This document shows positions 3,908 through 45,834 of a stretch of DNA of 64,000 nucleotides, piece by piece. Each line of letters opens with the position of its first letter. Position 1 is the stretch's first letter. This stretch comes from Ostreococcus lucimarinus (Eukaryota). Location of the stretch: assembly GCA_000092065.1 (NCBI GenBank), contig CP000587.1. One strand, given 5' to 3'. The notes below the pieces were generated by a model that was not told the origin of the DNA, searched no databases, and worked only from the letters and a program-made list of their open reading frames with translations. The position numbers and the translations under genes are program-made.

Positions 3908-4189
3908 ATGGCGCTCCCGGCCAAGGCGGCGAACGCGAACCCGTCGCTGGTGCTGCCGTCCGAGCTCGTCGAGCGGTGCGTCGGGAGCCCGCTGTGGGTG
4001 CTCATGAAGAGCGAGCGAGAGTTGGTCGGGACGCTGCGAGGCTTCGACGTGTACGTCAACATGGTGCTCGAGGACGTCACGGAGTACGAGACGACGGCGG
4101 AGGGACGGCGGGTGACGGGGCGGTTGGATCAGATCCTGCTGAACGGGAACAACATCGCGATGCTGGTGCCGGGGGGGGGGCCGGAGTAG
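3908..4189 (+). CDS. LSM5: U6 snRNA-associated Sm-like protein LSm5
   Basis: The 93-aa product ([46 protein letters not shown]...[20 protein letters not shown]) is collinear with LSm5 along its whole length. Confidence 0.85.
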
Positions 4190-4337
4190 GGACGGCGCGG
4201 CGGATCGCAAAGCGCGACGCGCGGAGTAGAGAAACGAACGGTAGATTTTAATCGGATGCGACGAGCGATCGATCGGATGCGTGGATTGGTTTCGTGACGA
4301 CGCGATGCGATGGCGTTACGCGGCGCGGTGTCGGACC

Positions 4338-8669: not shown

Positions 8670-9111
8670 CCTTATCTGCTCGATTCGTCTCTCACGCGCC
8701 CTCTCCCGCGCTCGACCGCGTCTCGCGCGTCCGCGACCGCGCCGTCGCGCGCGTGCGCGTTCGACGCGTCTCCTCTCTCTCGCGCGCGCCGATCGACCGC
8801 GCGGTCGCGTCGCGCGGCGTCCGTTCGCGCGCGGTCGCGTCGCCGATCGGTCACCGGCGCGCTCGGCGTCGCGCGCGCGCGCGCGCGCGCCCGCGCGTCG
8901 GCGCCGCGCGGGCGTGCGCGTCGACGGCGACGCGACGGGACGCCGACGACGCCGACGACGCGCGCGCGCGCGTCAACGAATGCGGACCCGCGACGTGCTG
9001 TCGCCGTTCGGTCGAACAATCCGCAGAGCGCGACGACGCGTCCGCGCGACGCGAGACGAGTCGCGCGCGAAGAGACGCGCGCGAACGATCGCGCGCGAAG
9101 AGACGCGCTCG

Positions 9112-11562: not shown

Positions 11563-11594
11563 CGATTAGCGTTTCGCTTACAGAGCTTGATTTG

Positions 11595-11599
11595 TTACA
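11595..11599 (-). promoter_or_regulatory. TGTAA putative poly(A) signal for ADP-glucose pyrophosphorylase, 72 nt 3' of its stop
   Basis: Plus-strand ttaca lies within gatttgttacaaagtt. Confidence 0.4.
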
Positions 11600-11673
11600 A
11601 AGTTCCGAATTCTAGAAGAATGTTGTGGTATTGCGCCGCGAGAGTTCTTGTGTCAACTTCTGAGACTGAAGAA

Positions 11674-13044
11674 TCAGATGACAGTGCCAGCCTTGATCAC
11701 GGCATCCTTGATGACGACAATGATGCCATCGCGGATGATGTAACCTTCGCTTTCGCAATCCTTATCCATGACGCCAGCCTCATTGAGGATTTGGCAGTTT
11801 TCACCAATGCGCGCGTTCTTGTCGATGATGGCTTTGCGAATCTTCGTGCCGGCGCCAATACCGATCGGCGTGCAGCCCGGAAGGCTAGCCGGGTCGCATT
11901 CTTCGAGGCTCTCGTAGTAATCAGCACCCATGACGAGTGTGTCCTCCAAATCACACCCTTCGTTGACCGTCGATCTCAAACCAACCATGACGTTTTTGAG
12001 CTTGGCTTGCTTGATGGTGCAGCCGTCGCCGATCGTGGAGCGCTCGATTTCGCAATCTTGCACCTTGCTCGGCGGCAAGAAGCGAGACTGGGTGTAGATC
12101 GGCGCGTTGCGATCGTAGAAACTGAACTTCGGGTTCGGGTCGTTGCACTCCAAGTTGGCGTGGAAAAACGCATCGACGGTACCGATGTCCTCCCAGTATC
12201 CGTCGTACAAGTGAGCGACCACCTTCATGCCCTTCTGAGCCGCCATCGGGATGATTTCACCACCGAAATCGTTCGCTTCCGGGAAATCATCTTGAAGCAC
12301 CTGCTCCATAGCCTTGGCGTTGAACACGTAGATACCCATCGAGGCAATGTACGGCATTTCCTTGGCGCGTTCCGCGTCCAAGCCTAAGATGGTGGTGTCG
12401 CATTGCATCGCCTTGAGAGCGTCACCCTTGGGCTTTTCGGAGAACTCGATGATGGTGGCGTGTTCGTTAATCTTCATCAAGCCGAAAGAGCTGGCTCGCT
12501 TCTCATCCGTCGGCAAAGCGGCGACGGTGATGTCGGCGTTCTTCGCGCGGTGGTCGCGAATAAACGGACGGTAATCCATGCGGTACAAGTGATCGCCCGA
12601 AAGAATCAAGTATTCCTCGCACCCGCTCTCGGCAAACAACCACAAGTATTGACGAACAGCATCCGCGGTACCTTGGAACCACGCCTTGTTGATCGGGCTC
12701 TGTTGAGCCGCGAGCACTTCGACGAATCCCTGACGCGTGTACGTCCCGATGTTCGTGTTGTACGCCTGGGACAAGTGTCTGTTCAAAGATGCGCTGTTAA
12801 ACTGCGTCAAGCAGTACACCTTGTTGATGTCAGAGTTGATACAGTTCGACACCGGGATATCGATCAAGCGGTAGTTCGCCCCCAACGGCACCGCCGGCTT
12901 CGCCCGCTTCTTCGTCAACGGGTACAATCGCGTCCCCGCGCCGCCGCCGAGAATGATGGACAACACGTTATCCATCGACGCATCGTGTTCCTTCTTCCCC
13001 TCGCTCTTCTCGTGCATCGCCGGCGACGTCGCATGAATCATCAC
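11674..13044 (-). CDS. Glucose-1-phosphate adenylyltransferase (ADP-glucose pyrophosphorylase) main exon; a 5' exon encoding the transit peptide is probably missing
   Basis: The AGPase match runs full length ([43 protein letters not shown]..., ...WEDIGT...). No plastid transit peptide is present. The frame stays open to 13136, where an ACTGAC...CAG acceptor sits (see findings). Confidence 0.85.
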
Positions 13045-13766
13045 CGCCGCCCGCGTCTCGACGCGTCGAATCGCGCGCGCATTCTTCGCCGCGCCTCTCG
13101 TCTTAATCGCCGCCGTCCCGCGCGCGCTCGCCCGCGCTGCGTTCGTCCAATCGCGATCCCGTCAGTCTTCCATCCTCGTCCCGCCCGCTTCGCGTCCTCC
13201 CGCGCGCGCGTCGCGTCCGCGTCGTCCACCACCGCGCGTTCGCGCGCGCCTCCGACGCGCGCGCGCGTCGTCGCGCGGCCCGCTTCGCGTCATCGCGTCG
13301 CCGCGCGTCGTCGACATCGAATCGAATCGAATCGATCGCGATCGTTCGTCCCGTCGTCGCGCGTCGAGGCGCGTCGTCGCGCCGCGCCGCGGTCGGCGTC
13401 GATCGTTCGCGCGCTCGTTCGATCGCGCACCCGTCATCGCGCGCGTCGTCGTCGTCGCGCGCATCGTCGTCGCCGTCGAAATGTGCGGCGTCGACGACGC
13501 GCGTCGACGCGCGATATCCGATCGCGCGCGCGCGCGCGCGTCGTGAGCCACTCGTTTCTTGGAACTGGTGATGGGTCTCGGAATGCGTCAAGTACGGGAA
13601 TTCGAGCGTTCGATCTTGGATTTATGCAACGCGCGAAACGTCGCGGGCGACGCGAACCGACTTATTTTAGGCGCGCGGAGGCGCGCGGTTGACTCGCGGG
13701 CGGCGCGCGGCAGAGCGCGGCCGGTGGCGCGCGACGTCGACGGGAGGGATCGAGCGCGCGCGTGAG

Positions 13767-16280
13767 ATGGTCGGACGCGTCGCGGTGTTCGCGCGGGTGC
13801 GGCCGAGGGATGGACGCGGGCGCGAGGAGGACGACGGCGAGGGCGCGGAGGCGGGCGGGGAGGACGGCGACGGCGCGGGACGGCGAGGGGCGTGGATCGA
13901 GGACGGACGCGTGGTGAGCGTGAAATCGACGACGTCGGTGAACGGCGTCACGCGGAGGTTCGCGGTGGACGGGGCGTTCGACGGGAGGGCGACGCAGCGG
14001 GAGGTGTACGCGGAGACGTGCGCGCCGGTGCTCGAGGCGGTGCGGAGCGGGTGTCGAGGATGCGTGCTCGCGTACGGACAGACGGGGTCGGGGAAGACGT
14101 ATTCACTACTGAATGGGGGTGGCGATCGAGCCGAACGCGAGGCGTCGACGAGCGAAGGTGGCAACGGGGGGCCGGGACTCGTGCCGAGAATCGCGGTGGA
14201 TTGTTTCGCGCGAGCGGCGAGCGACGCGAGGCACGCGTACGAGGTGTCGTGCGCGATGGCGCAGATTTATAACGAACAGGTCGATGATTTGGTAGCGAAA
14301 AAATCGGGATTACGTGTCGTTCCCGCGAGCGATGGCTCGGGGTGGGAGATTGAGAACTTATCGTGGACGCCGTGTCGAAGCGCCGAGGACGTTCTCGAGT
14401 GTTTTCGTCGCGGGCGATCGCGATTGGTGTACGCCGAGACGCATATGAACAAGCAGAGCTCGAGATCCCACTGTGTGTTTCAGATGAAAATCGAACGCAT
14501 CGAGCGACCGATCGAGGCGGATGTCGATCGCGACGAGGATGAGGATGAAGACGGAACCGCGCAGCTCGTCGCCGTGGAGAAGCGTCTCGGACTGCTCACC
14601 ATCGTCGACTTGGCCGGAAGTGAGCGACAGAAGAAGACGCAGAACGTCGGCGCGCGATTCAAAGAGGCGTTGAACATCAACACCAGCCTGCTCGCTCTAG
14701 GGAACGTCGTAAGTGCGCTCGCGGCGGGGCACAGGCACATCCCGTATCGTGATTCCACGCTTACGAAAATCTTAGAGCCGAGCCTGAACGGCAAGAGTCG
14801 CACGGTTCTGCTCGTGTGCGTCAGCTCCGAGATCGAGCACGCGAACGAAAGCGCGAATTCGCTCGACTTTGCCACGCGTGCGATGCGAATCGTGACTTCA
14901 CCCGAGGTTCGTTCGTCCTTAGTGGACATGGACCCTCGCAAACTGACGCAACAATTGCGCGGTCAATGCGACGACGAAGCGGTGGCGCGTCTGATGGATG
15001 AAGTCACTTCGCTTCGTCGCGCGCTCGCAAACGCGACGAAAAGTTCGGAGGATGACATTAACGCGATGAAAAAGTCGCGCGATTCGCTTCAACACGAGAT
15101 TTGCAGCGCGAGATTGGCGTTGGAGTCTTCGAAGAGGGCGCTCGAGCAAGCGAAGAGCGAGTCGACGACAAAGACGCGCGAGTTGGATGCGATTGAAAAT
15201 CAGCGTAGCGCGCTCGATTCGCGCGTACGCACGCTCGTGGTAAAGTTGAGCACGTCTTCGAATGAGCTGCAGAACGAGAGAGCAAAGTTCAAAGAGGAAT
15301 CAGCGCGACTTGTGGCGGACGCGCGGAAATTGGACGCGCAATTGAGCGCCGAGCGCGCGTCAGCTTCGCACACGCTCAAGCGCATGGAACATCTCAATAA
15401 GCTCGCGAGCGAGCTGAAGGTATCCAACGATTCCAATATCGTTGAGAACGCCAAGCTTAAAGCCGAAAATGTGCGGCTTCGGTCGACTGTTGGATCGCAG
15501 CGGATGGACAACGCGAGATTGATGCGCAGACACGCGGCGCTCGAATCGAAGCACGCCCTCGTCGTCGCCGAACGCGCCGAGCTCGTGTGCGAGTGCGAGT
15601 CCCTATTCATCGAGAACAAATTCATGGTCGTAATACGTGACGCTCTGGCGGCGGCTTGCGACGCAAAAATATCCGAAATGACTCGACGATATGTCAAGTT
15701 GGATGCGATTCGCGCGAGACATTCCATGGCCCGACGAGCGGCCGCTCGTCGATCGACCGAGCGCACGGCGATATTGATGGCTTTAGAGCGATCGAACAAG
15801 GGCGTATTGAAGCACGTGCGCGACTTAGAGAACCACAGGAGCGCCAGTGACGAGAGATACGCTCGAGAACTCGCGGCAGCGCGCGCCGAAGGCGACGCGC
15901 ATCGTCAGCGCGCCAAAGCCGCCGCGCGACTCCACGCTCTCTCCGCCGACCGTCAGCTCGAGCGAGGTTTAGTCTTAACCAAGCTCGCGCGCAATGGCAA
16001 GCGTTACGATCGACTTGTCCGCGTCGATCCATTCACCGGTGCGCTTGAGGCCGCGCAGTTGCCTCGCCGGTTCAAGAAAATCGCGCCGCGGCGCGCCGCG
16101 AGCGACGGCGCCCCGACCGCCGTCGACCGATCGCCGTCCCTCGCTATGACGCGAGACGACCAGCGCGACGTGGTTTCAATTTCTTTACAGAATCGCACGT
16201 TTGATATCGAGGCCACGCACGGCGCCGACCTCGTGTGGGGTCTCGCCCTCGCTCGCCGGTTTGGCGTTCGCGACGGCTGA
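13767..16280 (+). CDS. Kinesin-like protein with an N-terminal motor domain and a long coiled-coil tail
   Basis: Motor-domain motifs are the P-loop GQTGSGKTY, switch/neck-region NINTSLLALGNVVSAL and DLAGSERQ. The C-terminal ~450 aa are heptad-rich. I refined the start to the ATG at 13767. Confidence 0.8.
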   Translation: MVGRVAVFARVRPRDGRGREEDDGEGAEAGGEDGDGAGRRGAWIEDGRVVSVKSTTSVNGVTRRFAVDGAFDGRATQREVYAETCAPVLEAVRSGCRGCVLAYGQTGSGKTYSLLNGGGDRAEREASTSEGGNGGPGLVPRIAVDCFARAASDARHAYEVSCAMAQIYNEQVDDLVAKKSGLRVVPASDGSGWEIENLSWTPCRSAEDVLECFRRGRSRLVYAETHMNKQSSRSHCVFQMKIERIERPIEADVDRDEDEDEDGTAQLVAVEKRLGLLTIVDLAGSERQKKTQNVGARFKEALNINTSLLALGNVVSALAAGHRHIPYRDSTLTKILEPSLNGKSRTVLLVCVSSEIEHANESANSLDFATRAMRIVTSPEVRSSLVDMDPRKLTQQLRGQCDDEAVARLMDEVTSLRRALANATKSSEDDINAMKKSRDSLQHEICSARLALESSKRALEQAKSESTTKTRELDAIENQRSALDSRVRTLVVKLSTSSNELQNERAKFKEESARLVADARKLDAQLSAERASASHTLKRMEHLNKLASELKVSNDSNIVENAKLKAENVRLRSTVGSQRMDNARLMRRHAALESKHALVVAERAELVCECESLFIENKFMVVIRDALAAACDAKISEMTRRYVKLDAIRARHSMARRAAARRSTERTAILMALERSNKGVLKHVRDLENHRSASDERYARELAAARAEGDAHRQRAKAAARLHALSADRQLERGLVLTKLARNGKRYDRLVRVDPFTGALEAAQLPRRFKKIAPRRAASDGAPTAVDRSPSLAMTRDDQRDVVSISLQNRTFDIEATHGADLVWGLALARRFGVRDG

Positions 16281-16385
16281 GCCGCCGCCTCAGCCGCCGC
16301 CTCATTCCCCACCGGTCCTCACCGTCGTGATCGATCGCGTGCGGCGTCGCGTCGCCCGAGTGTGGAACAAACATCGACTCCGCGC

Positions 16386-16802
16386 ATGTCCGGCGGTCGC
16401 TCGCGGTCGCAGAAGCACCAAAACCGCGTGCCGTTCGTCGCCAAGCGGGACATCAAGCGCAACGAGGGCGACCGCGAGCGCGAGCTCGGCCTCCGTAACC
16501 TCGCCCTGCAGAACGTCTGCAAGCGATGTCAGCAAAAGATCGTCTGGCGCTTTCAAATGGGCAAGTATAAAGCGAAGAAACCGGGCACGCGCGGTCGGTG
16601 TAACAAGTGCGAGCAGAAGAGCGTGCGCATGGCGTACCGAAGCCTTTGCGACGCGTGCGGCAAGGCGCACGATTTGTGTCCGGGATGTCAGCACCCACCG
16701 AGCGAGGCGAACGCGAGTCGCGACGTGCCGGAAGCATGCGCGTCGTCCGGCTCAGATTCCGACGCTGAATCGGAACCAGCGTCCGACGGCGAGGAATCTT
16801 AG
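16386..16802 (+). CDS. C9orf85-homolog / DUF2039 family small zinc-binding protein
   Basis: RSRSQKHQN...CKRCQQKIVWRFQMGKYKAKKPG...CNKCEQKSV...CDACGK is collinear with human C9orf85 (SRPQKHQN...CQRCKEVLEWRVKYSKYKP...KCVKCLQKTV). TGTAA lies 24 nt after the stop. Confidence 0.6.
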   Translation: MSGGRSRSQKHQNRVPFVAKRDIKRNEGDRERELGLRNLALQNVCKRCQQKIVWRFQMGKYKAKKPGTRGRCNKCEQKSVRMAYRSLCDACGKAHDLCPGCQHPPSEANASRDVPEACASSGSDSDAESEPASDGEES

Positions 16803-16825
16803 TCGCCGCCAGGCGAACGCGTGAG

Positions 16826-16830
16826 TGTAA
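16826..16830 (+). promoter_or_regulatory. TGTAA putative poly(A) signal for the C9orf85-like gene, 24 nt 3' of its stop
   Basis: The sequence is gcgtgagtgtaacaaac. Confidence 0.4.
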
Positions 16831-16867
16831 CAAACATCTGTAGAGTAGTCTCCACTTTCCCGCGCGC

Positions 16868-18625
16868 ATGAGACGCGAGAGCAGCCCGTTGCTCGTGGAC
16901 GTCGTCGCGGACGATGATTTAGACGACGACGACCCGACGACGTCGTCTCTGGACGCGCGCGTCACCTTTACGCAGCTGTTATCGCTCGCGAAACGCGAGT
17001 GGGACACGTTACTCTTCGGGACACTCAGTCTGCTCGTTCGCCTGCCGTTCTCGGTGTCGATGCCGCATTTCACGAGCGTCGCGATCGGGGCGTCGATTGA
17101 CGGCGATGAAGCGCGATTTCGCGCCAACGTCACGCGGTTCCTGGTCGTTGGCGTGGTGAACGGAGTTTTAGACTTTAGCAATGTGTTCCTCTTTGCGTTG
17201 GCGCAGAGTCGCGTGGCGAGGCGGTTGCGGAATCGAGCGTTCGCGGCGACGCTGAGGAAAAATATGGCGTATTTTGATGCGAGAACGTCGGGTAAAATAA
17301 ATTCGACGGTGACGAACGATACGAGCGCGGTGAGCGCGAATTTGTCTTGGCTGTTACGCAGCTGCGTGGAAGCGGTCGTCAGGTGCGTCGGTGTCGGCGC
17401 ATATCTTTTGTTTTGGGTGAACTTCGAGCTCGGTGCGTTGGCGCTCGTCGTGATACCGATAACAAGCGTGGTCAATTACTTCTATGGCAAGTTATTGAGC
17501 GCTAACGCAGAGTCAGTGCAAGAGACGTTGGCGAAATCGAACGGCGTGGCGCAAGAAACTATTTCAAACATCGTCACGGTGCGATCGTTCGCGAACGAAC
17601 CGTTTGAACGCAGACGGTTCGGCGATGCCATAGATGAGTGGTACGAGCAGTCGTATCGCGCCGCGCAACTGTCAGGATGGTACTATTCGTTTATGTATTC
17701 GCTCGTGTCGGCGTGTTTCGTGCCGGCGGCAATTCTGTACGTAGGAGGTGGATTCGTCGTCGACGGCTCGATGCACGCCGAAAAGCTCGTTGCGACCATG
17801 CTTTATTCTGCGATTTTACAAGAGTATTTCGGGAATCTTTTGAGCTCTTTTACGAATTTGTTCGCCGCGCGAGGTGCAGCGGCGGAATTGTTCAAAGTTT
17901 TGGCCAAGAACGAGCGAGAAGACGACGACGCGGACAATGGCGCGACGCTACCCATCGACGACGTGAAGGGAGCAATATCGTTTTCAAACGTCTCCTTCTC
18001 GTATCCGACTCGACCGGATATTCCCGCGCTCTCGGGCGTGAGCTTCGATGTGTCGCCCGGCGAGATCATCGGCATCGTTGGTCGGAGTGGTTGCGGCAAG
18101 TCTACAGTGTTCGCACTGCTACAGCGTTTCTACACCGAATTTAGCGGCGACATCACACTCGACGGAGCGCGCATCGAGACGCTCTCGCCGAACTGGCTCC
18201 GGCGTCACTGCTTCGCGCTCGTTGGCCAAGAGCCAGTACTTTTCAACGGCACAATTCTTTCTAACATTGCGTACGCTCGTTTGGGCGCCGGAATCGATCG
18301 GGAGCGTGCGATTGAGTGCGCTAAGACTGCGCTGATCCACGACGTCATCGAAGACGAACTCGGCGGCTACGATACACACGTCGGAGAGCGGGGTTGTCAA
18401 TTGTCAGGCGGCCAAAAGCAGCGCGTCGCAATTGCTAGAGCGTTGTACTCGTCTCCGCGGGTGTTATTATTGGACGAACCCACGAGCGCTCTTGATTTAG
18501 AAGCCGAATCCATCGTTACCGCGGCTTTGCGAAAAGCCGCTCGCGGACGAACAACGATCGTCATATCACACACGCCCGTCGACTCGTTCGTCGACAGAAC
18601 TTTAGAACTCTCCCCTAGAACATAG
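16868..18625 (+). CDS. ABC transporter B-family half transporter (TMD-NBD), ATM/TAP-like
   Basis: An N-terminal 6-TM ABC membrane domain is followed by an NBD with Walker A GRSGCGKST, the signature LSGGQKQRVAIARAL and Walker B VLLLDEPTSALD. Confidence 0.85.
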   Translation: MRRESSPLLVDVVADDDLDDDDPTTSSLDARVTFTQLLSLAKREWDTLLFGTLSLLVRLPFSVSMPHFTSVAIGASIDGDEARFRANVTRFLVVGVVNGVLDFSNVFLFALAQSRVARRLRNRAFAATLRKNMAYFDARTSGKINSTVTNDTSAVSANLSWLLRSCVEAVVRCVGVGAYLLFWVNFELGALALVVIPITSVVNYFYGKLLSANAESVQETLAKSNGVAQETISNIVTVRSFANEPFERRRFGDAIDEWYEQSYRAAQLSGWYYSFMYSLVSACFVPAAILYVGGGFVVDGSMHAEKLVATMLYSAILQEYFGNLLSSFTNLFAARGAAAELFKVLAKNEREDDDADNGATLPIDDVKGAISFSNVSFSYPTRPDIPALSGVSFDVSPGEIIGIVGRSGCGKSTVFALLQRFYTEFSGDITLDGARIETLSPNWLRRHCFALVGQEPVLFNGTILSNIAYARLGAGIDRERAIECAKTALIHDVIEDELGGYDTHVGERGCQLSGGQKQRVAIARALYSSPRVLLLDEPTSALDLEAESIVTAALRKAARGRTTIVISHTPVDSFVDRTLELSPRT

Positions 18626-18645
18626 CGCATCAATCAAAATAGAAT

Positions 18646-20130
18646 CTAGGATGGTTTACGATCCATCAAGCCCCCACCCCACGCATCAGGAGACCAATCT
18701 GCGAGATTATCCGGCGGTACAAGAGTTCCCGCGCCTCCACCAATCAAACATCTCACCGCTTCGCTCTTCGTCACAGCGTAATGAAAGCGCGCGCTAAACC
18801 AATCCGCGAGGTGAGACTTCATCGTGTGTTTCGTCTCATCACAGGGTGCAGCGGCGTCTAACAAACGTTCTGTCGCTGCTTCCCACGTTAAACGATGGAT
18901 TTCATCATCCGTCATCGGTTTTGGCGTCGACGTTGTGACTTCTCTAATGCACTTTGCAAACTCATCCATATTGGAATACGTGCGACAATTTGGAAACGTG
19001 GCAAAGAACGCGTTGCTCGGATGTTCTGCGCACACGACGAATTTGCCCATCGCCAACGCCTCCGCGGACGTCGTCGCGACGACGTCAGACAGTGATGGAT
19101 TAATGAATACCTTGTAATCGAGAATTTTCTCATTCGCGTGATCCAGACGACCGAGCAAGCTCAGCGGCAGAGCCTTCTCAGCTACAGCTGCTTTCACGTC
19201 GGCAAAATCATCACCATCACCGTATACGTCCATTTCCAAGCGTTCTTTTGCACTTTTAGCGTACTTTTCGTTGAAATCGCCCACCACGTGCATCAACTCT
19301 GAGTATCCTTTCGCCCAAACGCACTTTCCGATGAAATACGCCCCGCGACTAAACGCCCCGCTGCCTTCCTTCTTGATTCGTTTCGCCTTCTCTCTACCAG
19401 CATCGATGAATCCATTTGACACACCGTGCACGTTTTGCGTGATCGACCGCGCAAACTCTTGTACCGCGTCCGACAATTTGATGACCTTGTGTGTGTGGCA
19501 TCGCGCCGTCAAATGATTAATCCAACGCAGTATCTGCTCCTTACGTTCACCATCCTCCTCTCGTCGCGCGTATTCCAAGTAATTTGTGTGAATGATTCCA
19601 ACCACATGCTTAAACCGCGACGTCCACCGCGCTCCGGGGTGATACCAGCACAAATGCTCCGGCTCCTCGAGTATCGCCACGTCTCTGCTCGCCTTCGGCA
19701 CGCGCAACGTGATATCCCCCACGGGCACGATGCTTCCCTTGTCCGTCGCGTACCTTCCCGGATACCACGCGATCAAAATTTTTGGCGCGAATCCCACGCG
19801 TTTTTTGGTCCAGTCCATGATGTACGCCTCTTGTTCGCTCGGCGTCTTGAACTCGACGCGCTTTGGGTAGACGATCCTCTGATCCTTTCTCGCCAACCAC
19901 GGTACTAAGAGCGTCACCTCGCGCGTGGTGTCTCCGTTCGCCAGATACACCGCTCGGAGCAACGGATTAACGCTCGTCCCCGTCATCCACGGCAGCGCGG
20001 CGGTGGTGACGATGACGAATTTACGTCCGGGCGCGCGCAGGTCCTTGGGGTTCGTTCGCGAGCGTTTCTTCGCTCGACGCTCGTTGAGATCGCCGAGCGA
20101 ACCGCGGCTGAACATGCGCTTGAGGACCAT
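18646..20130 (-). CDS. Digalactosyldiacylglycerol synthase (DGD1/DGD2 family GT4 glycosyltransferase)
   Basis: The match runs full length, e.g. KFVIVTTAALPWMTGTSVNPLLRAVYLAN and VVGIIHTNYLEYARRE. The GT4 C-terminal half reads FINPSLSDVVATTSAEALAMGKFVVC. Confidence 0.8.
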   Translation of the reverse strand: MVLKRMFSRGSLGDLNERRAKKRSRTNPKDLRAPGRKFVIVTTAALPWMTGTSVNPLLRAVYLANGDTTREVTLLVPWLARKDQRIVYPKRVEFKTPSEQEAYIMDWTKKRVGFAPKILIAWYPGRYATDKGSIVPVGDITLRVPKASRDVAILEEPEHLCWYHPGARWTSRFKHVVGIIHTNYLEYARREEDGERKEQILRWINHLTARCHTHKVIKLSDAVQEFARSITQNVHGVSNGFIDAGREKAKRIKKEGSGAFSRGAYFIGKCVWAKGYSELMHVVGDFNEKYAKSAKERLEMDVYGDGDDFADVKAAVAEKALPLSLLGRLDHANEKILDYKVFINPSLSDVVATTSAEALAMGKFVVCAEHPSNAFFATFPNCRTYSNMDEFAKCIREVTTSTPKPMTDDEIHRLTWEAATERLLDAAAPCDETKHTMKSHLADWFSARFHYAVTKSEAVRCLIGGGAGTLVPPDNLADWSPDAWGGGLMDRKPS

Positions 20131-20269
20131 TTTTATGCGCGTTCGTATTCCGCGCGCGCGCGCGCGATCGGGTCGCGCGCGGTAGAATGACGACCGACCG
20201 CTCCAACTGTCTTTCGAAACGCGAGTCGGCGAGTCAGACGCGGACGCGAGCGGGACGCCAGCGAGTGGT

Positions 20270-20274
20270 TTACA
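20270..20274 (-). promoter_or_regulatory. TGTAA putative poly(A) signal for the SAP/J-domain gene, about 78 nt 3' of its stop
   Basis: Plus-strand ggtttacagtgtaag carries ttaca at 20270-20274. A plus-strand TGTAA also occurs at 20276-20280. Confidence 0.35.
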
Positions 20275-20351
20275 GTGTAAGCGGTTACACAGCGATTACA
20301 TCGTCGAGCTAAGGTGAGTTGTCATACTCGCGGGCTAGTGCGATGGAGCGA

Positions 20352-22283
20352 TCACGGGGGGAGCTGCTGCCAGGCGTGGGTGAGCCACTTGGTGACCTCG
20401 TTCGCCAACGCCTGCTCGCGAATCGATTTTTGTCGCGCGCGGTCTGGGTGAAACTTTAACATCGCCTGGCGGTAGCTCTTTTGGAGCAAACGCTTGGTTG
20501 ATCGACCGTGTTGGTCGATGCTCACGCCGCAGCGGTAGAGGAACAGACGGAGGTCCGCGTGCATGGCCCAGATGGAGACTTGATGGACGGCTGCACGTTT
20601 GGCGTGATCCTCCTCTTCGCTCGCCTTCTTTGCTCTTTGTTTCGCTTCGACCGCCGCACGCTCTTCATCGCGCTTACGCTTCTTCTCGTTGAAGGCGGCT
20701 TGACCGGTGTCGCGCTTTTTCGTGAGCGCGTTGACGTAATCCTCTCGTTCGACGAGTGTCGAGACGTCGATACCCACATCCGTCGCGCACCTTCGCAGGT
20801 CCTTGATAGACATTTTCGTGGGATCAACACTGAGCAAAGTGTCCCATGCCTCGCACTCCGCATCAAAACGACTTTTCGTCGCCGCACTCGCGGTCGGTTC
20901 CTCAGGTTTTTGTCTCTGCTTCGACATCGGCGACGCCGCCGGCGACGCTGAGGCGTCGGCGCCTGTTCGCAATCCCTCGCACCGTTCCACTGTGCGGTGA
21001 AACAGTTTCAACGCATGTTGATACGAACTACGCGCTGCGGCGGCGGCGAATTGACTTTGCTGGTACTTCCCCGCGACCATTTGCAAGTTATCTTTGTGCC
21101 ATTGGCGGAGCGCGTAATCTGCTCCTCCGCGCATCGTGCGTTGGAAATCGAGCTGGCACTGCGCGAGTGTTTGTCGCATCGCCACCTCCGTGTTCAGCGC
21201 GGAGACGAGTTGTCTATGCGCTTGTTTCAGCGCAGTTCTCGCGTTTTGCAACTCCGTAGGATCGTCGGGTAATCCCTCCGGTGGACACGGCGGTATTCGC
21301 GCCGCCTCCGCTTGTTGGCGAGCCTCCTCGCGTCCCTGTTGCCCCCCCCACATGGACGGCTCTTCGCGGCGAGGCGGTTCGGCGTAGTCGTGCGGACACG
21401 TCTCCGCTTCGCGCGGAGGAAGGTTCGGCTTACCGTACCCTCGGGCTCGAGCCCAATTGATCGGGCAGTCCTTGTTCGATCGCGACTGTCTCGCCGCCTG
21501 CGAAGACGACGCCGTCGCCGGGCTCCCCTCTTCGCGTCGCCGCTTAGCGTGCGTCCAATCGTCATTCTCTACCTCGATGACATCGTCTTCTACCTCGTCG
21601 CCGTCTTCGTCGTCGACGTTCTCGTCCTTTGCGCTCGCCTCGGGCGCGCTCGCCTTTCTCGCGTTCCTCGCGCTTCGCCTCGTTCCCTCGCTCGTCGTCG
21701 TCGTCGTCGTCGACGACGGCGACGTCTTCCCGTGCACGCTACTCTCACGTCGCGTCTTTCTCGTCGCCGCCGCCGCCGCCTCCTCCGCTCGTTCGTTCGC
21801 CCCGTCTTCTCGCCGCCGTCTCGGCGTCCCGCTCGCGTCCTCCTCGCTCGCGATATCGATCACCTCCGCCGCTCCGCGTCCTCCTCCCGCCCCTTTCGCG
21901 CCGTCGTCCTCGCCTCCGCCGTCCCCGACGTCCAACACGTACCCGAACCTCGTCCCTCGCGCCTTGCTCCACGCGAAAAACAGCACCTCGCCTCGCTTCA
22001 GAAACGCCTTCGCCCGCGGCTTCAGCATCCGCAGCGCGCCGAATTTATCCTGCACGAACACCTCGCTCGCCGCCGTCCTGAGCTCGATCGCGCACTCCGG
22101 CGTCGTCACCAGCGCGACGGTCACGATGTGTCTCGGCAGCGTCGGGTCCGCGAATCCCAGCGCGCGCGCGTCGTTCAGTAATTCTTTCGGCGTCCCGAGA
22201 GGGTCGATGTCGATCCTCTTCGCCCCGCGCGGCGCCTGCACCGGTCGCAGGCTCGCGCGCGTCGCATCGCTCGTCGCGCGCAT
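20352..22283 (-). CDS. SAP-domain and C-terminal J-domain protein with an acidic low-complexity linker and an uncharacterised N-terminal domain
   Basis: The SAP-like motif is KMSIKDLRRCATDVGIDVSTLVEREDYVNAL. The C-terminal J domain reads LLQKSYRQAMLKFHPDRARQ (HPD tripeptide). The middle of the protein is a long D/E/S/T/R-rich stretch. Confidence 0.55.
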   Translation of the reverse strand: MRATSDATRASLRPVQAPRGAKRIDIDPLGTPKELLNDARALGFADPTLPRHIVTVALVTTPECAIELRTAASEVFVQDKFGALRMLKPRAKAFLKRGEVLFFAWSKARGTRFGYVLDVGDGGGEDDGAKGAGGGRGAAEVIDIASEEDASGTPRRRREDGANERAEEAAAAATRKTRRESSVHGKTSPSSTTTTTTSEGTRRSARNARKASAPEASAKDENVDDEDGDEVEDDVIEVENDDWTHAKRRREEGSPATASSSQAARQSRSNKDCPINWARARGYGKPNLPPREAETCPHDYAEPPRREEPSMWGGQQGREEARQQAEAARIPPCPPEGLPDDPTELQNARTALKQAHRQLVSALNTEVAMRQTLAQCQLDFQRTMRGGADYALRQWHKDNLQMVAGKYQQSQFAAAAARSSYQHALKLFHRTVERCEGLRTGADASASPAASPMSKQRQKPEEPTASAATKSRFDAECEAWDTLLSVDPTKMSIKDLRRCATDVGIDVSTLVEREDYVNALTKKRDTGQAAFNEKKRKRDEERAAVEAKQRAKKASEEEDHAKRAAVHQVSIWAMHADLRLFLYRCGVSIDQHGRSTKRLLQKSYRQAMLKFHPDRARQKSIREQALANEVTKWLTHAWQQLPP

Positions 22284-22393
22284 CGCGCGCTATCGCGCCA
22301 TCGCGTCGCGCCGCGCGCGCGTCGAGGTGTGCGGCGCGCCGGCGCGGAAAAGCGCCGCATTGCGGGACGCGCGTCGCATCGAATTCGTCGTCG

Positions 22394-23752
22394 ATGATGT
22401 CTTCGGCGCGCGCGCCTCGCGCGGGCGCGCGCGCGACGGGCCGCGGACGACGCGCGCGCGCGACGGCGGCGACGGCGGCGCGGCGCGCGACGTCCGCGGC
22501 GGCGCGCGGCGCGACGGGACGACGCGCGATCGGATCGGTGACGCGCGCGTCGGCGGCGGCGACGCGCGACGCGACGGCGGACTCGCGCGTGCCGGTGACG
22601 ATCCTCACCGGGTTCCTCGGCAGCGGGAAGACGACGCTGCTGAATCACGTGCTGAAGGCGGAACACGGGAAACGAATCGTGGTGATCGAGAATGAATTCG
22701 GCGAGGTGGACATCGACGGCGAACTCGTGGCGTTTCGCGAGAGCGGGGACGAGGACATCATGCTGCTGAACAACGGATGCCTGTGCTGCACGGTGAGGAG
22801 TGATTTGGTGGAGATGCTGATGAGACTGGTGAAGGAGAAGAAGGGAATGTTCGATCACATTCTCATCGAGACGACGGGGTTGGCGAACCCGGCGCCGATT
22901 ATTCAGACGTTTTATTTGGAGCCGGCGCTGTTGGATTCGTTGAGGTTGGACGGGGTCGTCACGCTCGTCGACGCGAAGCACGCGGAGCTGCATTTGGATG
23001 AAGTGAAACCGGCGGGGGTGGTGAACGAATCGCTGGAGCAGGTGGCGTTCGCGGATCGAATCGTCTTGAATAAGACTGATTTGGTGACGGACGCGCAAGC
23101 CAACGCGTTGGAGTATCGGTTACGGACGATTAACGACTTGGCGAAGATCGGTCGAGCGTCGATGGCTAAGGTAGATTTGGACTTCGTGCTCGGCGTCGGT
23201 GGGTTCGATTTAGAGCGCGTGCAAGATCAAGTCTTACCCGACGAACCGAAAAAGACAGAGGCGCATGATCACGGCCACTCGCACGCCGCCGGCGAGGAAT
23301 CGTGCGAAAAGTGCGATCACGACGACGGCCACAGCCACTCGCACGGCGAAGAGCATTCCCACTCACACGCGCACTCTCACGGTGTCGAAGCGGACGCCGA
23401 TTGCGAGGTTTGCGGTGAACACGGCCATTCGCACTCGCACCACGTGCACGACGACGCCGTCGGAAGCGTCTCCCTCTCCCTCGACGGTGACCTCGATCTC
23501 GATCTCGTCAACGATTGGCTCGGTTTACTCTTAAACGAGCGTTGGGAAGACTTATACCGCATGAAGGGCGTCCTCGCCATTCAAGGTTGCGACGAGCGTT
23601 ACGTCTTCCAGGGCGTCCACGCGTTATTCGAGGGCATGCCCGACCGCGCGTGGAAAGCCGACGAGACGCGTTCGTCCAAGCTCGTCTTCATCGGCAAAGA
23701 TCTCGACCGCGCCGAGTTACAGCGCGACTTCGAGGCGTGTCTCAGCCGTTAA
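22394..23752 (+). CDS. COG0523/CobW-family zinc-regulated GTPase metallochaperone (ZNG1-like) with an internal His-rich metal-binding insert
   Basis: G1 loop ILTGFLGSGKTTLLNHVL, CxCC motif GCLCCTV and G3-region TTGLANPAP are present. The His-rich insert is HDHGHSHAAGEESCEKCDHDDGHSHSHGEEHSHSHAHSHG...HGHSHSHHVHDD. The CobW C-terminal domain follows. The N-terminal Arg/Ala/Thr-rich stretch looks like a presequence. Confidence 0.8.
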   Translation: MMSSARAPRAGARATGRGRRARATAATAARRATSAAARGATGRRAIGSVTRASAAATRDATADSRVPVTILTGFLGSGKTTLLNHVLKAEHGKRIVVIENEFGEVDIDGELVAFRESGDEDIMLLNNGCLCCTVRSDLVEMLMRLVKEKKGMFDHILIETTGLANPAPIIQTFYLEPALLDSLRLDGVVTLVDAKHAELHLDEVKPAGVVNESLEQVAFADRIVLNKTDLVTDAQANALEYRLRTINDLAKIGRASMAKVDLDFVLGVGGFDLERVQDQVLPDEPKKTEAHDHGHSHAAGEESCEKCDHDDGHSHSHGEEHSHSHAHSHGVEADADCEVCGEHGHSHSHHVHDDAVGSVSLSLDGDLDLDLVNDWLGLLLNERWEDLYRMKGVLAIQGCDERYVFQGVHALFEGMPDRAWKADETRSSKLVFIGKDLDRAELQRDFEACLSR

Positions 23753-23881
23753 TCCCACATTTTTTCCCACCGCCTCGCATCGCGCGCTCGTTCATTTATA
23801 ATATCCATCCGAGACGCCCGCGCGCTCGCGCTCGCCCGCGCGATCGATCCAACATCCGTCGTCATTCTCAGACTCCAGACC

Positions 23882-25048
23882 ATGTTCGCCTCGCGCGCGC
23901 GCTCGATCGCGCGCGCGTTCACCCGCGCGCGCGCGCTCATCGCGCTCGCGTGCGTCGCGCGCGTCGCGCTCGCGCGCGCCGACGAAACGGCGCAAGATGT
24001 CGACGCGCACGCGACGTGGCTCCGACGCGAATTGCCGCGGTATCGCGCGCGCGCGGCGTCGTGCGTCGCGTGCCAGCGCGTGCTCGCGCACTTTGACGAA
24101 CACCTCGTGCTCGCGCTTCAAGACATCACGAACGCGGAGCGACGGAAGGCGACGAGCGCGACGGGGGAAAGGCGATTCGACGCGGCGCGGTACGGCGCGT
24201 ACGAGAGCGTCATCGAAGAGGCGGTGCCGCGAGCGTGCGCGACGACGAGCGTGGCGTTGAATCGAACGCTGCGCGTCGCGTGCGAGAGGATGATCGAAAG
24301 AAGCGAGGATGAGGTGGTGAAGTTGTATTACGAGGTCGGGAAGGCTATGGAAAGAGGAGAGAAGGAAGCGGATTTGGGGGAGGCGCTGTGCGGGGCGAAC
24401 GGCGCGATGGGCGGCGCGTGCGAGGACGCGGAGACGGCGGCGTGGACGGTGTCGGAGTTGGAGGCGCTGGAGACGGCGGCGATGAAGGTTTCGAGGGAAG
24501 ACTTGAATCCGTGGGACACCGCGCCGGGACACGAGGGCGAGTTCCTGAGCGAGCCCGAGTACGCGGCGCCGAAGAAGGGGGAGGTGGCCAGAATCGTTGC
24601 GTCGGATTTTTATAAGCGCATCATTTTGGAGAGAGACATCGACGCGGTGGTGTACTTTTCGTATCCGACGAAGGCCAAGGAGTTTCACGAGGCGTATGAG
24701 CAGACGCACGCGCTTCTCGCCGAAGTCCTGGAGGATGCGAAAGATTTGATCATCGCCCAAATAGACGTCGAGAAGAACGACGTGCCACCTCCGTACGCCG
24801 ACATGGCGACGACGCCGTGCGTGCTGTTGTACCGGGCGAAAAAGAAGGAGAACCCGAGATGGGTCCCCTTGCGCACGGAGGCGGGAGAGTACATCACGGG
24901 CGAGTCTGCGCCCACACTCGCAGACGTGTTGACCATGGTGAGCAAGAACGCAAAAACAAAGAAGACAAAACGCGAAGCCGACAAAGCCTTGGTCGAGGCC
25001 TCGGCGGAGGAATTGCACTCGAATCGCGCGAAGGATGATGAACTGTAG
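23882..25048 (+). CDS. Putative ER-lumenal protein with a signal peptide, a saposin-like Cys pattern, a thioredoxin-fold-like C-terminal domain without CxxC, and a C-terminal DDEL retention motif
   Basis: A hydrophobic N-terminus (ALIALACVARVALARA) is followed by paired cysteines (CVACQRV...C...C). The C-terminal part (VVYFSYPTKAKEFHEAYEQTHALLAEVLEDAKDLIIAQIDVEKND...TTPCVLLY) resembles a PDI b-type/ERp29-like fold. The protein ends ...RAKDDEL. Confidence 0.4.
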   Translation: MFASRARSIARAFTRARALIALACVARVALARADETAQDVDAHATWLRRELPRYRARAASCVACQRVLAHFDEHLVLALQDITNAERRKATSATGERRFDAARYGAYESVIEEAVPRACATTSVALNRTLRVACERMIERSEDEVVKLYYEVGKAMERGEKEADLGEALCGANGAMGGACEDAETAAWTVSELEALETAAMKVSREDLNPWDTAPGHEGEFLSEPEYAAPKKGEVARIVASDFYKRIILERDIDAVVYFSYPTKAKEFHEAYEQTHALLAEVLEDAKDLIIAQIDVEKNDVPPPYADMATTPCVLLYRAKKKENPRWVPLRTEAGEYITGESAPTLADVLTMVSKNAKTKKTKREADKALVEASAEELHSNRAKDDEL

Positions 25049-25402: not shown

Positions 25403-27731
25403 TTAAACAAGCGCCGATGCACGGCACTGCGCGTGCGCGTTTAATGCAGTTTGAGCCTGCTCAACCTCGGCTCGTGAACGAACGCTATGTGCCCATTCGG
25501 TGACGGAAGTCGCCGCTTTCGTACCCTCCGCGGCGCTCGCAAGCGACTTCGCCGCGTGCATCAATTCTCCGTTTGCTAAGTGAGTTTCCGCCTTGGCGAT
25601 GGCGCCTTCAATACCCTGCGCGCCTTCGTCGGATGTATCCTTCACGCGAAGCAGTGAAGCGGCGTACGCTAAACCGTGCGCTAACATACCGCCACCGTCT
25701 TGCGGAACCAACGACAACTTTCTCGCCGTGTCCCGAACGCGTTCCAGCTGTTCCGCCAATTGCAAGCGCGTGGGAACGCCTCGCTTTGCCATATCTTGAT
25801 CCAAGCCTTGAATGATGGTGGCGATGAACGGATCCTTTTTTGCGCACGTGTTGAGCAGCGCTAGTGCGTCTTCGAAGGCTTCGCCGTTCTCCACGCGAGA
25901 TCCGAAATCCATGACGGCGAGCTCAAAGCTTTGCACTGCGTGCGCTCGCTCGAGCGCTTCGCGGCGCTTCGTCAGCACTTGTCTCAAAGCTCCCATGCGG
26001 ATGCGCTCTTCATCTAGCGCCTTGATTCGCTCGATGCGTTCAGCGACCAGAAAGTCTGCGTGCTCTGCTTTCAATTTTTTCTCTTGCGTCTTCAGAGCGC
26101 GTTCTTTATCGACGACGGCGCGCTCCTTTTCTCTTTCGAGTTGACGAGAGGCGTCCTCGGCGCGCTGCTCCAAGACGTTGATCGCAGCGATGAGCTCGTC
26201 CGTAACCGATCGCTCGGCACTGACGACAGTTTCGAAGTTTTGAACCATCGACGAGGATAACTCGCTGAAAATTTTCATGTCGGATTCGGATTGAACCTTC
26301 ATGCCGTCCCTTAACGCCGCCTTTTCGTCGTCGCTCAGAGTTTCTCCGAGTGTTTTGACGGCTTCTTCGAGCAGCCGCGCCGCGCTCAGAGATTTCGAAG
26401 CGTTCATAATGCTGACATTTTCTCGCGCGGGCGGTTTCGGTACGTTCACTTTCGCGAGCACTTCAGGTTCCTTTTGATCCGGTTCGTCTTGCGGCACCTG
26501 CGAGCGAAAGACGCGCCGTCAGTACGAGTAAATCTTCGAGTTAATTGCGAATGAAAGATGTCGGCTGGCTCACAGGAACGAGGCGAGGTAAAGCCACGAG
26601 CCTTAGAACTCCAGCGGCGCTTGACGCGCGGTTTGCATGCGTGCGCGCCAAGCTAGCATTTAATGTTGGCCCTTGATAGGTCCGGCGCGGCACCGAGAAG
26701 CCGCGACAGATGAGTATAAGGCCCCGAGAATAAGCGTCACAAAAATACGAAATGTTGCGTACCTCTACGTTGGCGAGGAAGTCCGCGGTCGCGCTGAACG
26801 CGTCCGACAGTTCATCTTTCGCCGTTTCTTTGCCATCCTTCTTCGACTCGGTTGTGGCTTTCTTCGAGTTCGTCAACTCTTTCGCGTCGGGCTGCTTGAC
26901 GATTTCGATTTGCACCTCGACGTCTTTCCGCGCCGCCGCCGCCTTTGGTTTCGCCCGTCGCGGCGGCGGAGGCCTATCTTCCTCGTCCACGACGCTCATG
27001 GAATACGCTAAAAGCGCCGCGATCCCAGCACCGGCGGCGGCTAGAAGCGCCGTGCGATTCGACCCGCTTTCCTCCGTCGGCGTCGCGTTCGCCGCCGCGG
27101 GCGGCGCCGTCGCCGCCGCGCCCGCCGGCTTCGATAACGGCTCCCTCAACACCGTCCCTTTCGTCGCCATCGACTTCGCCTCCGCCAACACCGATTCATG
27201 CAGCGGAAACGTCGCCGCCTTCGCGTGCGGCATCACCCTATTGCCGCTCGTCGGCGGCGGCGCCGCCGTCGCCCGCGCCCGCGCCGTCGCCCGCGCCGCC
27301 GCCGTCGCGTCCCCCATCGTCGCCTTATACGTCCTCGGATCCCCCAACACCGATTCATGCAGCGGAAATTTCTTCGCCGCCGCGTGCGGCACCGCGCGAA
27401 TCTTCCCGATCGGCGGTTTCTTCTTCCTCGACGTCTTCGCCTTCGCCGGCGCCGCGCGCGCCGTCCCCGTCCCCGTCTTCGCCTTCGCCCGCCCCTTTCC
27501 ACCGCCCCTCGCCGTCGCCGTCGCCGCGCCATCCCCCGACGTCGACTTCGTCGTCGTTTTCGTCGTTTTCGTCGCGTATCCGCGTCCGAGCGCGTCCGCG
27601 CGCGCCGCGCGCGTCGCCGACGCCGCGATCCACGCCCGCGCGGTCGTCCCCACGGACGCGCTCGCGCCGCTCCCTCGCGCCGCCATCGCGTCGAGCGCCG
27701 CCGCGCACGCGCGCGCGCGACGCGTCGTCAT
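25403..27731 (-). CDS. MIC60: MICOS complex subunit MIC60 (mitofilin), two exons (26763..27731 and 25403..26497) joined across a 265-nt intron
   Basis: Exon 2 ends with a mitofilin C-terminal domain (AKAETHLANGELMHAAKSLASAAEGT...VTEWAHSVRSRAEVEQAQTALNAHA) that matches the human IMMT C-terminus pattern. Exon 1 supplies a presequence, one TM helix (ALLAAAGAGIAALLAYSMSVV) and a Lys-rich region. The exons are joined by GAG|GTACGC ... TACTGAC-N21-CAG|GTG in phase 0. Confidence 0.65.
26498..26762 (-). other. Spliceosomal intron of MIC60 (GT-AG, 265 nt, ACTGAC branch-like motif 21 nt upstream of the acceptor)
   Basis: Donor gag|gtacgcaac on the minus strand (plus 26762-26761). Acceptor ctttcgctcgcag|gtgccgcaagac (AG at plus 26499-26498). 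The in-ORF sequence between them (RNISYFCDAYSRGLILICRG...) is AT-richer and has no coding character. Confidence 0.6.
27187..27400. repeat. Diverged tandem duplication (period ~159 bp = 53 codons) inside MIC60 exon 1
   Basis: The core caacaccgattcatgcagcggaaa occurs at 27187-27210 and again at 27346-27369. On the minus strand this encodes the repeated peptide (V/M)PHA(A/K)A(K/T)(K/F)PLHESVL. Confidence 0.7.
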
Positions 27732-27863
27732 CCCGCGCGCGCGCTCGGGCGTCCGCGCGCGCGACGACGCGATGCGCGACGCGCTGTGCCGTCGCGCGCG
27801 CGACGACGCGCGTCGCCGTCACTTCCGCGCGCGACCCGACGTCGCGCCGGCGACGCGCGCGCG

Positions 27864-38666: not shown

Positions 38667-38671
38667 TCGAT

Positions 38672-45803: not shown

Positions 45804-45834
45804 CACGCGCTACGCTAGTTGTTGCATGTTCGAG

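Follow-up and report, generated by a model that had tools for sequence, protein, structure and literature searches.

Two tight convergent gene junctions of Ostreococcus lucimarinus whose mRNA tails almost certainly overlap, very probably as a product of neutral compaction

Ostreococcus lucimarinus is among the most gene-dense free-living eukaryotes. The compaction of the O. tauri genome (Derelle et al. 2006) and an average intergenic distance of less than 200 bp in Ostreococcus are both quoted in Lanier 2008 (PMC2367439). EST data from O. lucimarinus indicate that convergent transcripts overlap genome-wide (Lanier 2008, PMC2367439) and, as the same paper relays from Palenik 2007, 148 of 1647 EST clusters were merged, with small intergenic regions spanned by opposite-strand transcripts. 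In Micromonas, convergent overlapping pairs (COPs) have been described, the 3' UTR overlap being backed by ESTs and RNA-seq (van Baren 2016, PMC4815162). The near-upstream poly(A) element lies approximately 10-35 nt before the cleavage site; in O. lucimarinus, UGUAA is used by only 30.4% of the poly(A) sites, UUUAA is the second commonest near-upstream variant (10.5%), and about 60% of the sites use any listed variant and about 40% none (Zhao 2019).

The window, the whole stretch of 64,000 nucleotides analysed here (GenBank assembly GCA_000092065.1, contig CP000587.1), is nuclear DNA of O. lucimarinus CCE9901, probably chromosome 7. Its coding fraction is approximately 0.86 and its GC content approximately 0.60. 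In a gene map drawn from ORFs and codon bias, where a few starts and small exons may be wrong and the stops are more reliable, the 13 gaps between convergent coding sequences measure 5, 20, 31, 59, 67, 79, 88, 111, 113, 115, 129, 187 and 354 bp, with a median of 88 bp; tandem neighbours have a median gap of 131 bp and divergent neighbours one of 252 bp. The 5-bp and 20-bp junctions, to which a preliminary description had drawn attention, are the low tail of this continuous distribution, and about 12 of the 13 convergent pairs lie near enough for overlap. There is no support for regarding the arrangement as unusual: tight convergent gaps are normal in this genome, and in sister species some are tighter still, down to overlap of the coding sequences. 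A third tight junction, absent from the preliminary description, has a spacer of 31 bp (45804-45834) between a gene for an unknown protein of 260 aa (45021-45803, plus strand) and a cyclophilin/CS-domain gene (45835-46779, minus strand).

Some neighbouring features were described earlier as well. The head-to-head spacer of 132 bp upstream of the RbfA gene (27864-28631, plus strand, RBFA match) was found as reported, at 27732-27863. The tandem spacers that separate the kinesin gene (13767-16280), the DUF2039 (C9orf85-like) gene (16386-16802, plus strand) and the ABC transporter gene had been given as 106 and 66 bp and are 105 and 65 bp in the sequence. The proposed gene names ABC, DGDG synthase, TTL, kinesin, C9orf85-like and RbfA agree with Pfam matches or homologues. 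The label 'MIC60' of the minus-strand gene at 26541-27731, on the other side of the head-to-head spacer, is unconfirmed, with no Pfam Mitofilin match even at E<=1. A hidden non-coding RNA at the junctions was considered and rejected: the Rfam search returned nothing in the whole window, and hence no family at either junction; the single tRNA found by ARAGORN in the window lies far from both.

At both junctions, two protein-coding genes meet tail to tail with no gene between them. The left partner of the ABC/DGD junction is a gene of an ABCB-type half-transporter (16868-18625, plus strand, ORF of 585 aa, TAG stop at 18623-18625), which comprises a transmembrane domain followed by an ATP-binding domain (Pfam ABC_membrane, 1.1e-45; ABC_tran, 3.6e-31). 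Its orthologues in four other Ostreococcus lineages share 65-68% identity and keep the C-terminal ...VDRTLEL, and the tail beyond it differs in length, with the stop directly after TLEL in some lineages versus after TLELSPRT in others. The right partner, DGDG synthase (DGD; 18646-20130, minus strand, ORF of 494 aa, TAG stop at 18646-18648, cta on the plus strand), matches Pfam Glyco_trans_1_4, and its homologues carry the name digalactosyldiacylglycerol synthase. Residues 1-427 are identical to O. lucimarinus XP_001418961.1, a partial NCBI model of 427 aa. The C-terminus reads GGLMDRK(PS), and GGLMDRK followed by 0-2 residues is kept across Mamiellales homologues, down to 59-61% identity.

The two stops are separated by an AT-rich spacer of 20 bp (18626-18645, cgcatcaatcaaaatagaat, GC 0.30); this length had been read correctly in the text of the preliminary description, and the 21 bp of its title was an error. 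The spacer sequence is unchanged in two environmental O. lucimarinus-like contigs (L014, L015). Two independent assemblies, the Logan contigs L001 and L002, are 100% identical to window positions 9172-23984, which span the junction, and L001 also yields an identical 585-aa ABC gene call; the contigs cover nine genes without an informative intron, so an RNA origin is indistinguishable from a DNA origin. Both contigs stop at 9172, just past a repeat with a 14-nt period (9050-9119); this shared end is probably a break in assembly.

The second junction joins a tubulin-tyrosine-ligase-like (TTL-family) gene and a small three-exon gene. The TTL coding sequence, counted from its first ATG, occupies 37254-38666 on the plus strand and ends with a TGA stop at 38664-38666; the ORF is open from 37152, upstream of that ATG, and the Pfam TTL match is 6.9e-81. 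The small gene (38672-39220, minus strand, 138 aa) was modelled by manual splicing of exons 39220-39176, 39114-38923 and 38851-38672, with introns of 61 nt (GT-AG) and 71 nt (GC-AG) and a TAA stop at 38672-38674 (tta on the plus strand). Its product, a conserved green-algal protein of unknown function with no Pfam family match, matches UniRef A0A7R9SZ14, a transcriptome-derived protein of Ostreococcus sp. 'lucimarinus' (P0191), with 100% identity across 138 aa. The NCBI model of the small gene has 128 aa and covers only 57% of the true protein. The gap of 5 bp that had been reported between the stops is present in the sequence as tcgat (38667-38671). The tail-to-tail order of TTL orthologue and small gene recurs in O. 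tauri and in three further lineages.

The mRNA tails almost certainly overlap at both junctions, as indicated by the geometry, the spacing of the near-upstream element and the genome-wide ESTs. Since this element precedes cleavage by 10-35 nt (Zhao 2019), the two mRNAs cannot both end inside a 5-bp or 20-bp spacer without overlap. The earlier proposal that the 3' ends overlap or that the poly(A) sites lie inside the neighbouring coding sequence is therefore almost forced. A 24-mer across the spliced exon 2-exon 3 junction of the small gene had no matches in JGI metagenome and metatranscriptome contigs. Short ENA contigs with homologous sequence (L098, L099) were considered as RNA evidence and set aside because they are unspliced, carry no poly(A) tail and belong to a different lineage.

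The preliminary description had also remarked that neither tail-to-tail spacer contains TGTAA. The motif scan agrees: TGTAA is also missing from the 400 nt that follow each of the four stops, and the ABC/DGD spacer holds no listed variant. The absence carries little meaning, given that the motif serves only the 30.4% of sites mentioned above and that about 70% of the genes in the window lack it near the stop (about 11 of 37 have it no more than 100 nt from the stop). Only the TTL mRNA, of the four, has a listed variant within approximately 70 nt past the stop (TTTAA, +5). It is part of the palindrome TTTAAA (38671-38676), which presents UUUAA on both strands and overlaps the TAA of the small gene, so it may act as a signal shared by both genes. 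The small gene itself has the variant TGTAT at +118; in O. tauri and in one other lineage (L012), its TGTAA falls inside the TTL coding sequence, at +24 and +58. For the DGD mRNA, the candidate signal is UGUGA (18566-18570, minus strand), which lies within the ABC coding sequence, 76 nt beyond the DGD stop, and for the ABC mRNA the first listed variant, also a putative signal, is UGAAA (18782-18786, plus strand) at +157, antisense within the DGD coding sequence. Sister lineages have UGUAG inside the ABC/DGD spacer, at +3 to +19 from the ABC stop. A conserved poly(A) element at the junctions was considered and rejected: the comparison of motifs between lineages revealed only TGTGA, found at +68 to +76 in four of five lineages, and this motif is antisense to the Ser-His codons of ABC ...VISHT..., so its conservation is explained by the coding constraint on them.

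In O. lucimarinus the coding sequences of the partners do not overlap, lying 5 bp and 20 bp apart. Across five Ostreococcus lineages, the ABC/DGD spacer measures 20, 30, 24, 19 and 12 bp; two Ostreococcus lineages have no ABC gene at the site. The TTL/small-gene distance varies more widely, with values of +5, +38, +145, -10 and -35 bp. The negative values are overlaps of coding sequences, one of 10 bp in lineage L095-97 and one of 35 bp in the NCBI annotation of O. tauri (ranges 4001-4586 and 4552-5943, L094). This series at one orthologous junction shows that stops and spacers drift freely under compaction. A dual coding constraint was likewise considered and rejected: beside the ABC/DGD junction, third codon positions have an identity of 0.44-0.53 over the final 20-100 codons versus 0.52-0.57 in the rest of each gene, which reveals no extra synonymous-site conservation in a comparison of 5-7 lineages and few codons.

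Neutral compaction is the explanation that is considered highly probable as a whole: the spacers would have shrunk, and the overlap of the mRNAs would be tolerated rather than used, with no siRNAs formed. As no promoter is needed between convergent genes, deletion bias or selection for compactness could reduce their spacers to tens of bases. With the near-upstream element at its usual distance from cleavage, each mRNA would have to extend across the spacer and run antisense to the last codons of its partner, which would produce a convergent overlapping pair. The overlap would probably amount to tens of nucleotides and possibly to more than 100. The 3'-end signals would be degenerate, lineage-specific and embedded in the coding sequence of the partner, and the drift of stops and spacer lengths between sister species suggests that the overlap is merely endured.

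The overlap would disappear if a stop were mis-assigned, through a sequencing error or an overlooked intron near the 3' end, or if ultra-short 3' UTRs ended within the spacer. The NCBI models of two of the four genes, DGD and the small gene, are flawed, so annotation is error-prone here, and a wrong stop was a weak point that the preliminary description itself had named. However, all four stops are supported by Pfam matches, conserved C-termini or the transcriptome-derived protein, and the assignments hold. The C-terminus of DGD is kept out to relatives at 59-61% identity, the small-gene product equals its UniRef counterpart through the last residue, and in sister lineages the ABC and TTL ORFs end no more than a few codons away. 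A sequencing error at the ABC/DGD junction is countered by the identity of both Logan assemblies, and two UTRs cannot fit in 5 bp, and the element sits 10-35 nt before cleavage. For the stops this alternative is largely refuted, and as a whole it is very improbable.

Neutral compaction is also to be weighed against proposals in which the overlap has a function. In plants and animals, the production of nat-siRNAs requires Dicer-like and Argonaute proteins. The preliminary description had suggested that the overlaps may supply siRNA substrates, and a functional cis-natural antisense pair of this kind would form dsRNA whose siRNAs silence one partner. Where one cell transcribes both genes, spacers of 5 and 20 bp do guarantee that the 3' ends are complementary, and convergence is kept, for ABC-DGD in five Ostreococcus lineages and for TTL-small gene across the Mamiellales; such synteny is, however, expected anyway in highly syntenic genomes (Lanier 2008). 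Both O. tauri and O. lucimarinus are reported to be without Dicer and Argonaute (Pombert 2014), as is O. tauri in a further report (Kato 2023), so a locus of this type would lack the encoded proteins it needs and the overlaps would yield no siRNAs. The variation between lineages in candidate signals, in the position of the stops and in the length of the spacers, the absence of the ABC gene from the site in two Ostreococcus lineages and the absence of excess synonymous conservation beside the ABC/DGD junction also argue against it, and the suggestion is scarcely credible. Reciprocal regulation independent of RNAi, by polymerase collision or read-through or by dsRNA-dependent decay or masking, with partners expressed in anti-phase, for example between day and night, is a further proposal. 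It was raised for the Micromonas COPs in a paper that also notes rhythmic expression in Ostreococcus (van Baren 2016, PMC4815162), and interference is physically plausible at such close spacing. On the other side, it has no sequence support, nothing obvious connects the partners functionally, and the junctions drift without restraint from species to species. An effect open to about 12 of the window's 13 convergent pairs would also be genome-wide, not pair-specific; such regulation is unlikely. A bolder version, in which the tightest junctions would be shared bidirectional 3'-end modules, exemplified by TTTAAA at 38671-38676, and the overlap would couple the partners through collision or dsRNA decay, for example in diel anti-phase, in an RNAi-free cell, is judged quite improbable.

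The closely spaced convergent genes at both junctions are real and ordinary, and overlap of convergent transcripts has already been published for this species. If measured, overlap at the two loci would provide two concrete examples of a documented property of Mamiellales and would raise no new question. It matters for annotation, where UTR overlap leads transcript assemblers to fuse adjacent genes, and for engineering, in the choice of terminators and of safe insertion sites in Ostreococcus.

Among the known systems, the cis-natural antisense pairs of plants and animals likewise bring together convergent protein-coding genes whose 3' ends are complementary, but their siRNAs depend on Dicer-like and Argonaute proteins, both of which are reported missing from Ostreococcus. 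Many transcripts in parasitic and endosymbiotic genomes reportedly span several genes, an observation attributed to Williams 2005. The logic is the same there, as lost intergenic DNA pushes start and end signals into the neighbours and overlapping transcripts result, although Ostreococcus, unlike those organisms, is free-living. The COPs of Micromonas, a sister genus within the Mamiellales, are likewise protein-coding genes that meet tail to tail, but they were highlighted in a low-GC region with distant upstream neighbours (PMC4815162), whereas here the GC content is normal (about 0.60) and the upstream spacers are short too. The overlaps published for Ostreococcus are genome-wide statistics that do not single out the ABC/DGD and TTL/small-gene junctions, and the overlapping convergent units they describe (Lanier 2008) represent the same phenomenon, in the same species, as the overlap predicted for both junctions.

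The ABC half-transporter gene (ABC, 16868-18625, plus strand) ends with the TAG at 18623-18625, and the digalactosyldiacylglycerol synthase gene (DGD, 18646-20130, minus strand) ends at 18646-18648 (cta in the plus strand), as read directly from the sequence and the ORF table. The spacer, 18626-18645, is exactly 20 bp; the preliminary description gave this value in its text, and the 21 bp of its title is incorrect. Pfam matches of the ABC product are ABC_membrane (1.1e-45) and ABC_tran (3.6e-31), and DGD is recognised as a group-1 glycosyltransferase whose homologues carry the name digalactosyldiacylglycerol synthase. Two Logan contigs match the window at 9172-23984 with 100% identity. The DGD C-terminus GGLMDRK, followed by 0-2 residues, is kept among homologues with identity as low as 59%. 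The O. lucimarinus CCE9901 protein XP_001418961.1 is a partial model of 427 aa, identical to residues 1-427 of the DGD ORF, including the serine that separates strain CCE9901 from the common environmental variant, and is devoid of the conserved C-terminal 67 residues (the 18646-18846 side). The ABC tail VDRTLEL is common to four other Ostreococcus lineages, two of which stop immediately after it, while O. lucimarinus reads on through four extra codons (SPRT) to the next TAG (18611-18625); the stop codon is thus genuine, though evolutionarily mobile. The SPRT codons occupy what is spacer in the sister lineages ending with TLEL, and they narrow the gap.

At the second junction, the tubulin-tyrosine-ligase family gene (TTL, plus strand; Pfam match 6.9e-81) ends with the TGA at 38664-38666 by the same direct reading, and the terminal exon of a small gene on the minus strand ends with the TAA (tta) at 38672-38674, leaving the 5 bp reported earlier (38667-38671). 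The small gene has three exons (39220-39176, 39114-38923 and 38851-38672). Its intron 2 (38852-38922) begins with GC, not GT, and is a GC-AG intron (GCGAGT...CAG) that is also found in O. tauri and is missing from two other lineages (L012 and L095). Splicing yields a 138-aa product that matches the transcriptome-derived UniRef protein A0A7R9SZ14 of Ostreococcus sp. ‘lucimarinus’ over its full length with 100% identity. This match confirms the stop codon as well as the splice model; only 57% of the 138-aa protein is covered by the annotated NCBI model (128 aa). The NCBI O. lucimarinus models for both DGD (18646-18846) and the small gene (38672-39220) look incomplete. The end of the TTL ORF is matched to within a few codons by O. 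tauri and two other lineages. The stop-codon assignments of all four genes hold, since the DGD, ABC and TTL ends recur in relatives and the small gene corresponds to a transcriptome-derived protein. The 138-aa protein has no match in Pfam. Two of its trebouxiophyte UniRef homologues are named ‘ATP synthase subunit d, mitochondrial’, and the gene at 36721-37119, upstream of TTL, has a Pfam Mt_ATP-synt_D match (1.4e-11); the label may be a naming artefact, or related subunits may flank TTL.

The window is nuclear DNA of O. lucimarinus, which is among the most gene-dense free-living eukaryotes; this origin follows from the DGD match to XP_001418961.1, from the Logan contigs and from the position of the O. 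tauri counterpart of the second junction on chromosome 7. An ORF-based gene map relying on codon bias placed about 38 genes in the window, with a coding fraction of about 0.86. The 13 convergent pairs have CDS-CDS gaps of 5, 20, 31, 59, 67, 79, 88, 111, 113, 115, 129, 187 and 354 bp, the median being 88 bp, compared with 131 bp for tandem and 252 bp for divergent pairs. The 31-bp gap (45804-45834), where a cyclophilin/CS-domain gene faces an unknown gene of 260 aa, had been omitted from the preliminary description. Mean lengths of O. lucimarinus cDNA clusters and of their longest ORFs are 1358 and 1059 nt (Lanier et al. 2008, PMC2367439), which amounts to about 300 nt of UTR in each message and brings nearly every convergent pair in the window near enough to overlap. 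The 5-bp and 20-bp junctions are not unusual; such spacing is normal for convergent genes in Ostreococcus and nothing special to these loci. Kinesin, DUF2039 (the ‘C9orf85-like’ gene) and RbfA were also assigned by Pfam. The tandem spacers separating kinesin, the DUF2039 gene and ABC are 105 and 65 bp, one less than the 106 and 66 bp described previously, and the head-to-head spacer between the supposed MIC60 gene and RbfA is indeed 132 bp. The MIC60 label itself (26541-27731, minus strand) was not confirmed: a Mitofilin match is absent in Pfam even at E<=1, and the best match, to an unrelated family, is not significant (E = 0.024). Elsewhere, ARAGORN predicts a tRNA-Leu (GAG) at 7212-7289 (plus strand) inside the 5′ end of a long minus-strand ORF (4338-7310), so that one of the two must be wrong, the tRNA prediction or the start codon chosen for the ORF. 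A GC-rich tandem repeat with a 14-nt period (CGCGCGAAGAGACG-like) lies at 9050-9119 in the 5′ coding part of the gene 8980-11562, and two independent Logan assemblies both break just downstream of it, at 9172.

Orthologous loci were retrieved through proteins homologous to DGD and to the small gene's product. Five Ostreococcus lineages have the ABC/DGD junction, and their spacers measure 20, 30, 24, 19 and 12 bp. ABC does not adjoin DGD in more distant genera, and in two other Ostreococcus lineages it is missing from this slot, DGD facing DUF2039 instead. The latter arrangement also occurs in a more distant relative with 56% DGD identity (loci concerned: L006, L019, L021-L025, L039). Judging from this distribution, ABC was either inserted at, or lost from, the exact slot between DUF2039 and DGD within the genus. 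ABC orthologues have diverged more (65-68% identity) than those of DGD (79-84%). TTL and the small gene are convergent throughout the relatives, at distances of +5 (window), +38, +145, -10 and -35 bp. The CDSs overlap by 10 bp in one Ostreococcus lineage (L095-L097, 4300-4309) and by 35 bp in O. tauri (L094, GCA_000214015.2, chromosome 7, 4552-4586), where the NCBI annotation itself overlaps them (4001-4586 and 4552-5943). Given the O. tauri value, the 5 bp of O. lucimarinus is not even extreme for this junction.

The lack of TGTAA at both junctions, previously treated as meaningful, is uninformative. UGUAA is the main near-upstream element in O. lucimarinus ESTs, about 10-35 nt upstream of cleavage, yet it accounts for only 30.4% of sites, or 59.6% together with its one-base variants (UUUAA, 10.5%; UGAAA, UGUAU, UGUUA, UGUGA and UGCAA) (Zhao et al. 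2019); in the window, about 11 of 37 genes have TGTAA no more than 100 nt from the stop, in agreement with that frequency. The palindrome TTTAAA (38671-38676) provides UUUAA in both strands; it sits at +5 relative to the TTL stop and overlaps the stop codon of the small gene itself. Downstream of the other stops, listed variants occur only within the partner CDS: UGUGA at +76 (DGD), UGAAA at +157 (ABC) and UGUAU at +118 (small gene). The ABC message of sister lineages carries UGUAG inside the spacer, and in O. tauri and L012 the UGUAA of the small gene sits inside the TTL CDS. Among the lineages compared, no poly(A) signal is conserved save UGUGA, and its conservation is explained by coding constraint, as it is antisense to the Ser-His codons of the ABC motif VISHT.

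By the geometry of both junctions, 3′ ends that overlap, or poly(A) sites that fall within the neighbouring gene, would be almost unavoidable. This earlier proposal fits the 5-bp and 20-bp spacers and agrees with published ESTs of O. lucimarinus. The spliced exon 2-exon 3 junction of the small gene was not found in a scan of JGI metagenome and metatranscriptome contigs, and short contigs carrying homologues had no poly(A) tail. A conserved function of the overlap would predict unusually conserved synonymous sites in the last codons. In codon alignments of seven DGD and five ABC orthologues, third-position pairwise identity at invariant residues over the last 20-100 codons was 0.44-0.46 for DGD and 0.50-0.53 for ABC, against 0.55-0.57 and 0.52-0.53 elsewhere in the same genes, that is, with no excess synonymous conservation. 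Rfam gave no family match anywhere in the window. The suggestion that the overlaps supply siRNA substrates conflicts with the reported absence of Dicer and Argonaute from O. tauri and O. lucimarinus (Pombert et al. 2014, PMC4014436) and from O. tauri (Kato et al. 2023, PMC9871001). An RNAi-independent role, such as transcriptional interference or diel anti-phase expression, is conceivable, and nothing found supports it. The tight junctions are a real, ordinary and already described consequence of genome compaction: ‘convergent overlapping pairs’ were defined in Micromonas (van Baren et al. 2016, PMC4815162) by overlapping 3′ UTRs, like the arrangement that O. lucimarinus would have.
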